Positions 2,448-6,694 of a stretch of 7,164 bases of DNA are shown here, piece by piece. The notes below the pieces were generated by a model, which saw only the letters and a program-made list of their open reading frames with translations, did not search any database and was not told the origin of the DNA. The position numbers and the translations under genes were made by a program. This stretch comes from a virus (Duplodnaviria > Heunggongvirae > Uroviricota > Caudoviricetes), in IMG/VR virus record IMGVR_UViG_2778261085_000001. One strand, written 5' to 3'. The stretch's first letter is position 1; every line of letters begins with the position of its first letter.

Positions 2448-2810
2448 ATGGCGACTTTGACCAAAGAAGAACGGTTTACCAAAGAGCAGTTAATAGCCCA
2501 CGCAGAGGAGACTATTGAATCACAGAGACTGTGCATACCAGGTACAATCGACCATGACCTCATTCGCGCATATAAGATGGATATTGCTGTTCTGGAAATT
2601 GCACTGCAATCGCTGGCAGCAGCGCCAGTTGGTAAATTTTATGAATACAAACCAGTGGGGTATCAGCGTCTGGTCGACGAGTTAACCATGCAGGTAAAGC
2701 AGTTAACCTGGCAACTGAGGAAAGCGAAGCCGGACTGCAAACTGCCGGATAAGGTGATGGACTACCTGGAGCGAAACGGACTGATAAGCGTGGAGGATAT
2801 TTTACGATGA
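2448..2810 (+). CDS. Phage hypothetical protein (120 aa)
   Basis: ATG at 2448 lies 1 nt after the preceding stop. No family recognised. The stop overlaps the start of a downstream small ORF (ATGA). Confidence 0.6.
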
Positions 2811-2890
2811 CCTGGCCTGAAGCATTCACAACGGCAGGAATTGCGATGGCGGTGGCGCTGATGGTGTATTCGATTTGCCGCTGGGGATAA
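2807..2890 (+). CDS. Small hydrophobic peptide (27 aa, [27 protein letters not shown]), likely a single-pass membrane peptide; absent from the ORF track
   Basis: ATG at 2807 overlaps the upstream stop (ATGA) and has a GGAGG SD at 2793-2797. It is the last ORF before the operon terminator at 2901-2926. Confidence 0.4.
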
Positions 2891-2895
2891 CAAAC

Positions 2896-2926
2896 AAAAA
2901 CCCCGGATTGACGGTCCGGGGTTTTT
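2896..2926 (+). terminator. Intrinsic (rho-independent) terminator ending the early operon; probably bidirectional
   Basis: Perfect 7-bp stem CCCCGGA (2901-2907) pairing with TCCGGGG (2915-2921), 7-nt loop, then TTTTT (2922-2926). An A-run precedes the stem, so the reverse strand also sees a hairpin followed by a U-run. Confidence 0.8.
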
Positions 2927-3085
2927 GAAGGAAACAAACAGAAACAACAATTGCCGTTATCTGTTGCCACCAATGACAAGTAAACGTATCACAGGCGAGC
3001 GCATTGCGCCGTTCTGACGCGCATAAGGTAGATCAGATTTCAGGAGCTGGCAATAAAAAGTTGGTGGAAAGTCTGATGCAGATGT

Positions 3086-3112
3086 GAAAAGACAGCCCCG
3101 AAAACGGGGCCG
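3086..3112 (-). terminator. Intrinsic terminator for the minus-strand 96-aa gene
   Basis: GCCCCG (3095-3100) pairs with CGGGGC (3105-3110) across an AAAA loop. On the minus-strand RNA the hairpin is followed by UGUCUUUUCA. It lies about 8 nt after the stop codon at 3119-3121. Confidence 0.7.
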
Positions 3113-3118
3113 GATTTA

Positions 3119-3409
3119 CTAAGCACCAATAATTCTGAAGATGTAATCCTTGAAGATGAGAGCCAGAGCTGCAGCAACAATAAACCACTGGAGTCGATCA
3201 AACTTGGTTTCCAGCTTGTTGAACCGTCTTTCGGTTTCTTGCTCCATTTTGTCGAGGCGCTTATCTATAACGTTCAGGCGTGTATCCATCTCACGACGGA
3301 GGTTATCAACGTTTTCTTGTGTTGCCAGGTGTTGCATGTTCTGCTGGCGATGCAACAAAGCATTCAGCACATCGCTGGTGCTGAACTCAATTTTTTTGTC
3401 GTCACTCAT
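3119..3409 (-). CDS. Coiled-coil protein with C-terminal transmembrane anchor (96 aa); possibly XhlA-like or DUF1640-like
   Basis: ATG at 3407-3409 (minus) has a strong AGGAGG SD 5 nt upstream. The central region is charged and heptad-like (RREMDTRLNVIDKRLDKMEQETERRFNKLETKFDRLQ); the C-terminus is hydrophobic (WFIVAAALALIFKDYIFRIIGA). It is a stand-alone opposite-strand gene with its own promoter and terminator. The family assignment is from memory and uncertain. Confidence 0.6.
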   Translation of the reverse strand: MSDDKKIEFSTSDVLNALLHRQQNMQHLATQENVDNLRREMDTRLNVIDKRLDKMEQETERRFNKLETKFDRLQWFIVAAALALIFKDYIFRIIGA

Positions 3410-3414
3410 GCTGG

Positions 3415-3453
3415 CCTCCTGTATAGGGAATCGTGGTACAGGAAAAACCTGTT
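3415..3453 (-). promoter_or_regulatory. 5'UTR with two mutually exclusive hairpins, one of which overlaps the SD of the 96-aa gene
   Basis: Plus-strand motifs are CCTGTA (3418-3423), TACAGG (3437-3442) and CCTGT (3448-3452). On the minus-strand mRNA this reads 5'-AACAGG-UUUUU-CCUGUA-(13 nt)-UACAGGAGG-CCAGC-AUG. The central CCUGUA can pair either upstream (SD free) or downstream with UACAGG (first half of the SD buried). Confidence 0.4.
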
Positions 3454-3459
3454 AAGTAA

Positions 3460-3488
3460 ATAGTAAAGTTAATCGCTTCACTCATCAA
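3460..3488 (-). promoter_or_regulatory. Putative sigma70-type promoter for the 96-aa minus-strand gene
   Basis: On the minus strand: -35 TTGATG (plus 3483-3488), 17-nt spacer, -10 TACTAT (plus 3460-3465). The predicted transcription start is near plus 3453, at the first UTR hairpin. Hexamer matching by eye only. Confidence 0.3.
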
Positions 3489-3508
3489 GAGAGGAAGCAC
3501 AGAAGCGG

Positions 3509-3538
3509 TTGACGACAACAGAAATCAGAGACAATATT
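3509..3538 (+). promoter_or_regulatory. Putative divergent sigma70-type promoter for the 3591 to 5668 gene block
   Basis: TTGACG at 3509-3514, 18-nt spacer, AATATT at 3533-3538. If real, transcription starts near 3545, which excludes the track's TTG start at 3537 and favours ATG 3591. Confidence 0.3.
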
Positions 3539-3590
3539 GCCGCACGCCAGCCTGAACAACTGGCACCTGCTGCGCCAGCAGAGAAAACAG

Positions 3591-3863
3591 ATGGCGCACC
3601 ACACCAAATTACACAATTCTGATACCGCCCCTGCCAGCAGATACGGGCGGCGTTCGCGCGCATTTAAAACCGACTGGTTCCAGCATGATCCATGCACTGA
3701 AGAGCAGGCAGAGTGGCTAATTCAGAACTACCGCAGACGTGGTTACGAGTTTCAGAAAGACCTCAGCCTCGACTTCCGACACTGGATAATCTCAGTCAGA
3801 CTGCCTTACTCTGAACGCCCACCGCGTCCGTCCCGCACATTCCAGCAACGCATCTGGAGGTAA
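3591..3863 (+). CDS. Basic hypothetical protein (90 aa) immediately upstream of the DUF968-like gene
   Basis: ATG at 3591 is in frame with the track ORF 3537-3863. The stop at 3861-3863 lies 1 nt before the next GTG start. Arg/Lys-rich; no family recognised. Start choice is uncertain because the local SD is weak (AGAGAAAA). Confidence 0.45.
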   Translation: MAHHTKLHNSDTAPASRYGRRSRAFKTDWFQHDPCTEEQAEWLIQNYRRRGYEFQKDLSLDFRHWIISVRLPYSERPPRPSRTFQQRIWR

Positions 3864-3864
3864 C

Positions 3865-4914
3865 GTGCGGGTATTGCTTCGACCTGTTCATGTACCGGAA
3901 CTTGGGCTGGTGGTCCTTAAACCTGGCCGTGAATCCATGCAGGTATTTCATAGCCCTCGAGTGCTGGTGGAGCCGGAACCGAAAAACATGCGCGGTCTGC
4001 CGTCCGGAGCTGTTCCTGCCGTTCGCCAGCCGCTGGCGGAAGATAAATCATTACTGCCATTTTTCAGCGATGAGCGGGTGATTCGTGCTGCTGGCGGCGC
4101 TGGTGCACTATCTGACTGGCTCCTGCGTCATGTCAAATCCTGCCAGTGGCCTCATGGTGACTATCATCACAGTGAAATCGTCATACATCGTTACGGTACC
4201 GGCGCGATGGTGTTGTGCTGGCACTGTGACAATCAACTGCGCGACCAGACCTCGGAATCGCTAGAGCAACTTGCTCATCAAAATCTGACAGCCTGGATGA
4301 TTGACGTCATCCGTCACGCAATGAATGGCACGCAGGAGCGGGAGTTATCGCTGGCTGAATTATCCTGGTGGGCGGTCTGCAATCAGGTGGCGGACGCGCT
4401 ACCGGAAGCAGTATTACGCCGTTCGCTGGGATTACCGGTGGAAAAAATCCGTTCCCTGTACCGCGAAAGCGACATCGTACCGGGAGAGCAGACAGCTACC
4501 AGCATACTGAAGCAGCGCACAAAAAATATTGCGCTACCACCTCACGCCCACCAGCAACAGAACGCACCACAGGAAAAGACGGTGGTCAGCATTGCCGTAG
4601 ATCCGGAGTCTCCGGAATCTTTCATGAAGCGACCTAAACGTCGCCGTTGGATAAATGAGAAATATACACGCTGGGTAAAGACACAGCCGTGTGCGTGCTG
4701 TGGTAAGCCAGCCGACGATCCCCATCACCTGATTGGTCATGGTCAGGGCGGAATGGGAACAAAATCCCACGATATTTTCACGCTACCGTTATGCCGGGAA
4801 CATCACAACGAACTTCATGCGGATCCGCTGGCGTTCGAAGAAAAGCATGGTTCCCAGGTTGATTTAATTTTTCGTTTTCTTGATCACGCCTTTGCAACCG
4901 GCGTGCTCGGGTAA
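3865..4914 (+). CDS. DUF968-like prophage protein with a C-terminal Cys/His-rich HNH-like motif (349 aa)
   Basis: GTG at 3865 follows a GGAGG SD at 3856-3860. The C-terminus carries CACCGKPADDPHHLIGHGQGG...LPLCREHHNELH, a zinc-finger/HNH-type arrangement. Length and position just upstream of rusA and Q resemble what I recall of E. coli Qin prophage YdfU, although Qin as I recall it has no rusA between them. Confidence 0.6.
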   Translation: MRVLLRPVHVPELGLVVLKPGRESMQVFHSPRVLVEPEPKNMRGLPSGAVPAVRQPLAEDKSLLPFFSDERVIRAAGGAGALSDWLLRHVKSCQWPHGDYHHSEIVIHRYGTGAMVLCWHCDNQLRDQTSESLEQLAHQNLTAWMIDVIRHAMNGTQERELSLAELSWWAVCNQVADALPEAVLRRSLGLPVEKIRSLYRESDIVPGEQTATSILKQRTKNIALPPHAHQQQNAPQEKTVVSIAVDPESPESFMKRPKRRRWINEKYTRWVKTQPCACCGKPADDPHHLIGHGQGGMGTKSHDIFTLPLCREHHNELHADPLAFEEKHGSQVDLIFRFLDHAFATGVLG

Positions 4915-4926
4915 AAGAGGTTACTG

Positions 4927-5298
4927 ATGCGTATAGAGTTTGTTTTGCCTTACCCGCCGACGGTAAACACCTACTGGCGACGTCGTGGCAGCACATATTT
5001 TGTATCAAAAGCCGGTGAGCGTTATCGCCGTGATGTGGCGCTCATTGTTCGCCAGCAGCGGCTGAAATTAAATCTGTCCGGAAGGCTGGCAATAAAAATT
5101 ACTGCAGAGCCACCGGATAAGCGCCGTCGTGACCTGGACAATATTCTGAAAGCACCACTGGATGCACTGACACATGCGGGGTTGCTTATCGACGACGAGC
5201 AGTTTGATGAAATTAATATTGTGCGCGGTCAGCGCGTACCTGGTGGTCGGCTGGGTGTGAAGATTTACGAAATTACAGGTGGTAACGATGGCGCGTGA
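4927..5298 (+). CDS. rusA: Crossover junction endodeoxyribonuclease RusA (Holliday junction resolvase), 123 aa
   Basis: ATG at 4927 has an AAGAGG SD. The protein shows clear similarity to E. coli RusA as I remember it, including the acidic catalytic block DKRRRDLDNILKAPLDALTHAGLLIDDEQF, with the conserved RRRDLDN and LDD elements. It sits just upstream of Q, as in lambdoid prophages. Confidence 0.85.
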   Translation: MRIEFVLPYPPTVNTYWRRRGSTYFVSKAGERYRRDVALIVRQQRLKLNLSGRLAIKITAEPPDKRRRDLDNILKAPLDALTHAGLLIDDEQFDEINIVRGQRVPGGRLGVKIYEITGGNDGA

Positions 5299-5668
5299 TA
5301 TTCAGATGGTTCTTGAGCGTTGGGGGGCATGGGCGGCTAGTGATAGCTCGGGTGTGGACTATTCACCTATAGCTGCCGGGTTTAAGGGACTTCTGCCCTA
5401 TACCAGTAAGAAACGCCTGGCTTGTTCAGATAGTGACGCATTAATTATTGAAGGTTGTCTTGCTTGTTTAAAGCAAAAAAGGCCTTATGAGCATTCGCTT
5501 CTTGTGGCACATTATTTATACAGGATATCCAAGCGCAAGATTGCAAAGGCGCGTTGGAAGGATGAGAAATTGATACGTATAGAGATACAGATGGCTGAAG
5601 GGTTTATCGACGGTTGCCTGAGTATGTTGGATGTAAGTTTAGAAATGGATGCCGAAGTGGAATCTTGA
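5288..5668 (+). CDS. Late-gene antitermination protein Q (Q-family of the E. coli cryptic-prophage type), 126 aa
   Basis: ATG at 5288 has an AGGTGG SD at 5277-5282, and the start overlaps the rusA stop by 11 nt. The N-terminus MARDIQMVLERWGAWAA and the motifs IAAGFKGL and MAEGFIDGCLSMLDVSLEMD closely resemble the prophage Q antiterminators (quuD-like) I recall. The track's GTG at 5279 is probably three codons too early. Confidence 0.8.
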   Translation: MARDIQMVLERWGAWAASDSSGVDYSPIAAGFKGLLPYTSKKRLACSDSDALIIEGCLACLKQKRPYEHSLLVAHYLYRISKRKIAKARWKDEKLIRIEIQMAEGFIDGCLSMLDVSLEMDAEVES

Positions 5669-5676
5669 AACCAGAC

Positions 5677-5694
5677 AGCCCGATTACTCGGGCT
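5677..5694. terminator. GC-rich hairpin between convergent Q and the minus-strand moron; candidate bidirectional terminator
   Basis: AGCCCGA (5677-5683) pairs with TCGGGCT (5688-5694) across a 4-nt loop, giving a 7-bp stem. The minus-gene stop codon (plus TTA at 5684-5686) lies in the loop. Flanking runs are only moderately T-rich, so efficiency is uncertain. Confidence 0.4.
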
Positions 5695-6694
5695 TATCTT
5701 CAACATCTTTCACATGTAAAATTACGGCGGACTTGATATCTCCATCAATGTGTTTGGCATTGATGCTTAAATGCACAGGCTTTCTTTCCCATTCAGCTCG
5801 CTGTAAGGCTTCTTTGTTCCCTGATTCATCAAGGAATATATCCTGAACAACGCAGGTCAAACGTTGATCAGAATCGACCTTTCGAACCTTAACTTTGAAG
5901 CTTTCGGGGTCGGTATTATTCACTTCTTCGATACGGTATATACCGTCTATTCTCATTTCAACTGAGCGCCGACGAGCATTTGTTACTAGCTCTTTTGCCG
6001 TTTCTGAATCTATTGTGACACCGTCAATTTCTGCTGAATCTGAACGCACGAAAGATTTAACCATGGTGGTTTTAGCGTCATAAGACATTCGATCCATATT
6101 GTCGAGTAGAGGTTTTTTAGCCACCATTTCTGAGATGATTTGGAGGCGTTTTGTTTCCTCCTGTGTCATCACTTGCATTGCGCGTAGGTGTTCTTTGTCG
6201 CCTTCTTTAGCAATTTCAGCCAACCGAGTATCTTTACGGTTATCCAGATAGCGTTTGAAGACGGTTACACCGCCCCATATAACGGCAGCACCGAGAACCG
6301 TAAATACAATCTCTGTGGCGTTCATTTTCCCTACCAGTTCGTGCGTAAGCTTGCTTAGGAAGCCATCAATGTTAATCTCTACAAGAGATGAACCTTGCTC
6401 TACTGTAACTTCAATTTCTAAAGCATCAAGTTCTTCTTTTGTTAGCCTGCGGACATCAGGAGTTCCGAACTTTGCTAGCGCATAAGACTTATTGAGTTGC
6501 GATTGCATTTCAACAAATCCTTTCATAACTGAAGGTGTGAGTGATTTGTTGAATTTTTCACCAGTCAACCTGATGGTTAGACTTGGCCAACCATTGAAAC
6601 TAATTTTTTCGGGTAAAGCTTGTCCGTTTAGGTAACGTTCAAGTAATTCAAAAGCTTGCTGTTCAGACTCAACGTCGTAATGTATTTCGTACAA
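5684..6694 (-). CDS. AT-rich moron: hypothetical protein with a central transmembrane helix (336 aa); function unknown, candidate phage-exclusion protein
   Basis: A long minus-strand ORF with a TTG start at 6692-6694. There is an in-frame stop five codons upstream and no ATG or GTG between, so TTG is the only possible start for the full-length ORF; a GAGGG SD lies 6 nt upstream. One clear hydrophobic segment (ATEIVFTVLGAAVIWGGVTVF) sits between two soluble charged domains. G+C in four 60-nt lines I counted by hand is 38-47 percent, against about 58 percent in two lines of the DUF968-like gene. It is not a porin: no signal peptide and no C-terminal Phe. Confidence 0.65.
   Translation of the reverse strand: MYEIHYDVESEQQAFELLERYLNGQALPEKISFNGWPSLTIRLTGEKFNKSLTPSVMKGFVEMQSQLNKSYALAKFGTPDVRRLTKEELDALEIEVTVEQGSSLVEINIDGFLSKLTHELVGKMNATEIVFTVLGAAVIWGGVTVFKRYLDNRKDTRLAEIAKEGDKEHLRAMQVMTQEETKRLQIISEMVAKKPLLDNMDRMSYDAKTTMVKSFVRSDSAEIDGVTIDSETAKELVTNARRRSVEMRIDGIYRIEEVNNTDPESFKVKVRKVDSDQRLTCVVQDIFLDESGNKEALQRAEWERKPVHLSINAKHIDGDIKSAVILHVKDVEDKPE

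Follow-up and report, generated by a model that had tools for sequence, protein, structure and literature searches.

The window, which is the whole stretch of 7,164 nucleotides analysed here, raises the question of what a protein with a Cys/His-rich C-terminus does directly in front of the RusA Holliday-junction resolvase. The original prediction described a 349-residue reading frame that ends in Cys/His motifs and is followed by rusA. This is what the window contains: rusA follows after 12 nt, and all three motifs were located in the protein (CACCGK at residues 276-281, PHHLIGHGQGG at 286-296 and CREHHNELH at 310-318).

A ydfU-type gene in a lambdoid prophage segment

The window is a mosaic lambdoid prophage segment, for which the best match in E. 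coli covers 88% at 96.8% identity, and the gene (Table 1) is an unremarkable representative of ydfU, which is widespread in E. coli prophages. It is a real gene and no chance ORF. The TAA stop codon of the upstream ORF (3861-3863) is located 1 nt from the GTG of the ydfU-type gene, between the GGAGG and this start codon, suggesting that the upstream PHROG 1212 ORF is translationally coupled to the ydfU-type gene. We sampled 160 IMG/VR loci (80 of the window type and 80 of the SfIV type, in which the protein is about 54% identical), and the 1-nt gap between stop and start was found again in 64 of the 76 window-type loci with an upstream ORF; the search returned close relatives only, so that linkage counts from this sample overstate the number of independent events. 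The true start of the upstream ORF is uncertain, since the PHROG 1212 profile is limited to part of it. RNA elements were not found in an Rfam scan of the window, and the matches of a promoter scan were at chance level.

Table 1. Position of the ydfU-type gene, its protein domains, its signals and its neighbours in the window
Feature	Coordinates	Strand	Details
Small upstream ORF	3537..3863	+	PHROG 1212, profile matches residues 43-108
GGAGG Shine-Dalgarno of ydfU-type gene	3856..3860	+	4 nt before GTG, read from sequence
ydfU-type gene (DUF968 family)	3865..4914	+	GTG start, 349 aa, stop included; ORF list
N-terminal zinc module (probable)	4117..4242	+	residues 85-126, putative ligands C93, H101, C118, C121
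Helical middle region	4243..4593	+	residues 127-243; secondary structure, pLDDT, conservation
Basic lead-in VDPExPxxFMxRPKxxRW	4594..4650	+	residues 244-262, conserved
HNH / His-Me finger core	4675..4824	+	residues 271-320
RusA Holliday-junction resolvase	4927..5298	+	PF05866, E=2e-16; 12 nt after ydfU stop
Q-family late-gene antiterminator	5279..5668	+	PF06530, E=4.5e-50; overlaps rusA end

The protein belongs to the Pfam family DUF968 (PF06147), the whole 171-position profile of which matches residues 160-346 with 257.2 bits (E=9.9e-77) at a gathering threshold of 27.8 bits. PHROG 96 ('HNH endonuclease') matches it over the full length (E=3e-175), and NCBIfam is without a model for it. YdfU from the Qin prophage of K-12 (b1560) is 85% identical over 349 residues without a gap. 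As predicted, the family is widespread in enterobacterial prophages. Related DNA is present in 4473 of 5426 complete E. coli genomes, with at most 9 copies per genome and the annotation 'DUF968 domain-containing protein'. Full-length homologues were detected by tblastn in 186 phage records, covering phages of Escherichia, Shigella, Klebsiella, Salmonella, Yersinia, Morganella, Cronobacter and Vibrio and also P1, and among 1.84 billion representative proteins 3068 scored as homologues at E<=1e-3.

The HNH assignment of DUF968 and YdfU is already in the literature, and nothing in the window itself is new. Jablonska et al. combined DUF968 and DUF1364, which includes YbcO (PDB 3G27), as group 7 of the His-Me finger (HNH) superfamily; they name YdfU and give RusA and the antiterminator Q as its genomic neighbours (2017, PMC5714182). 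YbcO was tied to P1 Ref and to HNHc_6 using FFAS by Kaur and Subramanian (2016, PMC4999995). The lack of a functional characterisation stated in the original prediction also agrees with the literature: YdfU was still listed among the uncharacterised K-12 genes in 2024 (PMC11551758), and our literature search found no functional study or assay of a DUF968 member. A role in anti-phage defence was considered and dropped, since the PADLOC defence models did not match the protein at E<=0.01.

Several other ORFs of the window were noted. A 336-aa ORF on the reverse strand (5684-6694), convergent with Q, belongs to PHROG 6191 (E=8e-143), matches no Pfam, NCBIfam or PADLOC family and is accompanied by a terminator-like hairpin on its strand (5694-5677); phage mEp390 likewise carries a reverse-strand gene here, and the ORF looks like a moron in the gap between Q and the lysis genes. 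A second reverse-strand ORF (3119-3409, 96 aa) has weak family matches only, is coiled-coil-like with a hydrophobic C-terminal tail (WFIVAAALALIFKDYIFRIIGA) and is followed by a strong terminator-like hairpin (3112-3093). On the forward strand, a 143-aa ORF (1751-2182, PHROG 1621) carries a zinc-ribbon signature of the CxxC...CxxC type with a weak TFIIB zinc-ribbon match below threshold (E=5e-4), and a DUF4406 / nucleoside 2-deoxyribosyltransferase-like gene is located at 695-991. A DUF4406-type gene is also found in Vibrio phage Cla (locus 2214-2504), directly upstream of the DUF968 homologue and overlapping it.

The C-terminal HNH core

The C-terminus of the window protein very probably forms an intact HNH active site. 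The strongest link is the one to Gp16 from the Staphylococcus phage PhiNM1: BLASTP pairs residues 273-328 with Gp16 residues 142-200 (39% identity, E=1e-9), and hhalign of the C-terminal domain against Gp16 gives a probability of 95%. The profile of the C-terminal 105 residues finds YbcO first in the PDB (E=0.11), and the hhalign comparisons of the C-terminal profile with YbcO and with Ref both yield E=2e-5; a PDB search with the single sequence returned chance C2H2 zinc-finger matches only. For the structure prediction an alignment of 32 diverse full-length homologues (26-83% identical) was used, resulting in a mean pLDDT of 87.2 and an AF2 pTM of 0.54, with which the arrangement of the domains is uncertain. 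The modelled C-terminus has the His-Me finger superfamily's beta-beta-alpha-metal fold, and the best structural match is P1 Ref (PDB 3PLW). The HNH-like C-terminus of the original prediction was thus found again in profiles as well as in the structure, via YbcO, Ref and Gp16.

The likeness extends to single residues. H288, located at the end of strand 1 as the catalytic His, and the metal-binding helix residues H314 and H318 align to H157, H185 and H189 of Gp16, and each of them is conserved in 34-35 of 44 representatives. The zinc knuckle is formed by C276/C279 and C310/H313, which align to C145/C148 and C181/H184. These Gp16 residues have been assigned to a nuclease centre (H157, H185, H189) and a zinc finger (C145, C148, C181, H184) (PMC12817073), and all of them have aligned counterparts in the window protein. 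As assigned from the alignment, the C-terminal 80 residues would be a zinc-stabilised beta-beta-alpha-metal (HNH) site, with the structural zinc bound by C276, C279, C310 and H313, the catalytic metal by H314, H318 and D303, and H288 as the general base. The motif H287-H288-D303-H314-H318 (HHDHH) is complete in 33 of the 44 representatives of 290-380 aa, and the C-terminal zinc set is CCCC or CCCH in 28 of them. Both sets are complete in all 158 full-length copies from the IMG/VR loci, which represent two E. coli-type clades.

Two Pfam nuclease families match below their thresholds. HNHc_6 (PF16784) reaches 22.3 bits with the whole protein and 25.5 bits with the C-terminal 95 residues (threshold 26.6), and RecA_dep_nuc (PF16786) reaches 15.5 bits (E=0.019, threshold 26.9); therefore family membership does not justify carrying over RecA dependence. 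Gp16 was described in 2026 as a dsDNA-binding nickase that promotes phage replication; RecA enhances its activity and is required for its toxicity (PMC12817073). Most probably the YdfU-type protein would use a metal to nick double-stranded or branched DNA without much sequence specificity, and, by analogy with Gp16 and Ref, which are stimulated by or dependent on RecA, it may be stimulated by RecA. The composite reading that we prefer, and to which we give an even chance, is an HNH nickase, possibly stimulated by RecA, that acts on recombination or replication intermediates, is targeted by its N-terminal half and cooperates with RusA.

The same relatives allow a host-directed reading, in which the nuclease nicks the host chromosome with or without RecA, stalls host replication and favours phage replication, RusA-linked recombination of phage DNA not being its main role. 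The HNH core is homologous to that of Gp16, overexpression of which leads to growth arrest, a higher oriC/ter ratio and nucleoid condensation (PMC12817073), and Ref, the top structural match, also acts on RecA-bound host DNA (PMC4713147). We consider this reading unlikely.

The N-terminal half and variation within the family

Residues 1-159 are without Pfam coverage, and a Foldseek search with the N-terminal domain returned no match. The model predicts a beta-hairpin (residues 105-118) and a helix (119-125) for the putative zinc module, in which D122 and N123 follow directly after the putative ligand C121. Among the 44 representatives, C93 (followed by Q94) is present in 41 and C118 (followed by W119) in 42; position 101 is Cys or His in 39, position 121 is His or Cys in 42, and D122 is found in 38. 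Positions 101 and 121 are occupied by the pairs C/H in 22 representatives, H/C in 10 and H/H in 7, and C/C never occurs. This pairing fits a four-ligand zinc site, the sequences being related and the events therefore non-independent.

Three sequence comparisons, none of them significant singly, place this module in the register of a true HNH, with C93 as the second knuckle Cys, C118 corresponding to C310, position 121 to H313 and D122 to H314. The equivalent of the catalytic His in this register is position 102, which is His in 17 of the 44 representatives; a second candidate, position 108, where the predicted first strand ends, has His in 6. Since His is conserved at neither position, the module is read as degenerate and non-catalytic, and with moderate confidence, on the basis of the predicted structure, we regard it as a probable second, HNH-like zinc domain. 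An earlier description of a tandem-HNH architecture for YdfU-type proteins was not found, and the 2017 account of group 7 does not contain it.

The helical middle region, in which the Pfam DUF968 model begins at residue 160, carries the conserved motifs LSxxELxWWA (161-170), LP (179-180) and ESD (201-203), and residues 229-236 are modelled as a low-confidence linker. The basic lead-in in front of the HNH core has a near-invariant P257 and K258 and may bind DNA. The N-terminus similar to Orf and NinB that Curtis et al. proposed for Gram-positive 'DUF968' proteins is inapplicable here: those proteins are now HNHc_6, and the window protein does not have the NinB/Orf-like N-terminal domain of that family. 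Fusions of the N-terminal half to tail-tip J, tail-fibre, portal and capsid domains were rejected as chimeras and not used as architectures. They were seen in the metagenome representatives P0145, P0188, P0189, P0125, P0172 and P0245, in which the YdfU-like first 150-300 residues are in frame with phage structural domains, and are most likely artefacts of assembly or the joints of prophage deletions.

Not all clades have kept the HNH site. P1 PdcB is homologous over the full length (26% identity, DUF968 E=3.6e-50), and its gene is located directly upstream of the late activator gene lpa, as ydfU is upstream of Q. PdcB has YIDQE in place of HHDHH and keeps both sets of zinc ligands. Its clade (P0199, P0219, P0254) retains the full length and both zinc sites and has lost the catalytic residues. 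PdcB is non-essential (PMC10695390, PMC10067587, PMC10999674) and, judged from these replacements, probably catalytically dead. In RefSeq, pdcB (P1 locus, 2501-3544) is labelled 'HNH endonuclease' despite the YIDQE.

Since the catalytic residues are lost and the zinc sites retained, the protein of at least one clade would function without cutting DNA, which tells against the preferred reading. The window protein might then be a non-catalytic DNA-binding or regulatory protein as well, with zinc modules that contact DNA or a partner (RusA or the late-gene regulator, for example), cleavage being irrelevant. The lack of a conserved catalytic His in the N-terminal domain and the position of the gene, which is nearly always immediately followed by the late activator Q or Lpa, would be in agreement with such a function. 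However, HHDHH is complete in the window protein and in three quarters of the representatives. Furthermore, three of the four C-terminal zinc ligands are lost in a Vibrio-phage clade (CTHE) and in relatives with the CT.. pattern, which yet keep HHDHH, so that selection there acts on the catalytic residues; the Vibrio-phage clade (Cla locus 2498-3505; L167-L175) also keeps the N-terminal zinc set. We therefore rate a purely non-catalytic function as distinctly improbable.

Gene neighbourhood, proposed role and known relatives

RusA is linked to the DUF968 gene in two different gene orders. It follows in about 72 of the 80 window-type loci, nearly always after 12 nt, and precedes the DUF968 gene with one gene between in 77 of the 80 SfIV-type loci, both counts coming from closely related loci. 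In the window the sequence AAGAGG is located ahead of rusA (4915-4920), and in mEp390 RusA overlaps the start of the DUF968 gene. A RusA gene adjoining the DUF968 gene is absent from nine of nine Vibrio-type loci, P1 and K-12 Qin, and in the Vibrio-type loci RusA was not detected within 3.5 kb. The linkage in two orders argues for a functional tie between the two genes that is not obligatory. The neighbour that varies least is the late-gene activator (Q, or Lpa in P1) immediately downstream; with Q seeds, Q was found downstream in 33 of the 77 SfIV-type loci. The PHROG 1212 ORF is located upstream in 76 of the 80 window-type loci and in no SfIV-type or Vibrio-type locus, and might serve the nuclease as a partner or regulator specific to this clade. 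The gene between RusA and DUF968 in the SfIV type (gp44 in SfIV, locus 1678-2493; the same in L087-L166) encodes a 'transcriptional regulator' of about 270 aa at a constant spacing of 818-830 nt.

This conservation also bears on the question of mobility. Free-standing phage HNH genes are often homing enzymes (His-Me group 2, PMC5714182). A selfish homing endonuclease would spread among related phages by cutting genomes without the gene, and the patchy occurrence among lambdoid phages, with absence from lambda, would be expected for such an element. But the specificity modules NUMOD, AP2 and HTH were not found in the window protein by Pfam, the operon coupling to the flanking genes is conserved, and the two-domain architecture is kept at 25-50% identity across phages of Enterobacterales and Vibrio. 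The closest relatives are non-specific nickases. We regard homing as very unlikely. A packaging-associated HNH that helps terminase to cut cos or pac sites, as does HK97 gp74, is hardly credible: HNH-terminase partnerships are common (PMC12817073) and P1 pdcB is located two genes upstream of pacA, but PdcB is probably dead and dispensable, and the lambdoid gene belongs to the early nin region, which Q and the lysis genes separate from the packaging genes.

The position of the gene relative to lambda was misjudged in the original prediction, which placed it where lambda has NinG. The genes rap and rusA are positional alternatives in the nin region (PMC4118853), the counterpart of NinG being RusA. 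The order in DLP12 is ybcN-ninE-ybcO-rusA-ylcG-quuD, with ybcO overlapping rusA; since ybcO is located directly before rusA, the window gene is in the YbcO slot. The NinG profile was unmatched even at E<=10 by either half of the window protein.

Returning to the preferred nickase reading, we propose that the YdfU-type protein would be made from the delayed-early (nin-region) transcript, as part of the final block ahead of the late-gene activator Q. Its substrate would be recombination or replication intermediates in the infected cell, and the nicks would feed or complete recombination, with the adjacent RusA resolving the resulting junctions. The N-terminal half would probably provide recognition of DNA structures or partners, replacing the NinB-like domain of Gp16 and the basic tail of Ref. 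A more specific version, which we put forward as speculation that may well prove wrong, is that the degenerate N-terminal domain of a tandem HNH targets the C-terminal nickase to RecA-made D-loops or branched DNA and forms a 'nick and resolve' module with RusA in most E. coli prophages.

YdfU-type genes are found in prophages of about four fifths of the sequenced E. coli genomes, often in several copies. Should the proteins turn out to be RecA-linked nickases in the manner of Gp16 and Ref, prophage induction, recombination between prophages and the sensitivity to DNA-damaging antibiotics could all be affected; Shiga-toxin phages carry YdfU-type genes, and an effect on inter-prophage recombination could, if true, include them. 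The residue-level match to Gp16 makes the function of this long-standing E. coli 'y-gene' directly testable, and the possible tandem-HNH architecture is part of the residual interest in this near-ubiquitous family.

Comparison with known systems places the window protein among several phage nucleases. Lambda NinG/Rap (PF05766) is likewise a nin-region His-Me finger nuclease, acting on branched DNA (group 24, PMC5714182). YbcO from DLP12 and phage 82 (PDB 3G27, DUF1364) is a single domain of 96 aa with a Cx7C first knuckle and without the N-terminal half; the window protein, with 349 aa and a CxxC knuckle, is no DUF1364 member, and the kinship is found at the level of profile and fold. P1 Ref is an HNH endonuclease of 186 aa that depends on RecA, with a disordered basic N-terminus and without a second zinc domain, whereas the window protein scores far below the RecA_dep_nuc threshold. 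K-12 YdfU belongs to the same Pfam family as the window protein, and both genes are located upstream of the Q antiterminator; in Qin, however, ydfU stands directly before Q without rusA between them. Among the closest characterised relatives is also Gp16, an HNHc_6 protein that also passes the DUF968 threshold (29.1 bits). The HNH cores of the two proteins are 39% identical over 59 residues and have the same CxxC...H...CREHHNExH spacing, and both genes are expressed early, the PhiNM1 RusA gene being located in the early region of Gp16. The two proteins differ in the part in front of this core, which is a NinB/Orf-like domain in Gp16 and an unrelated N-terminal half of about 245 residues in YdfU.
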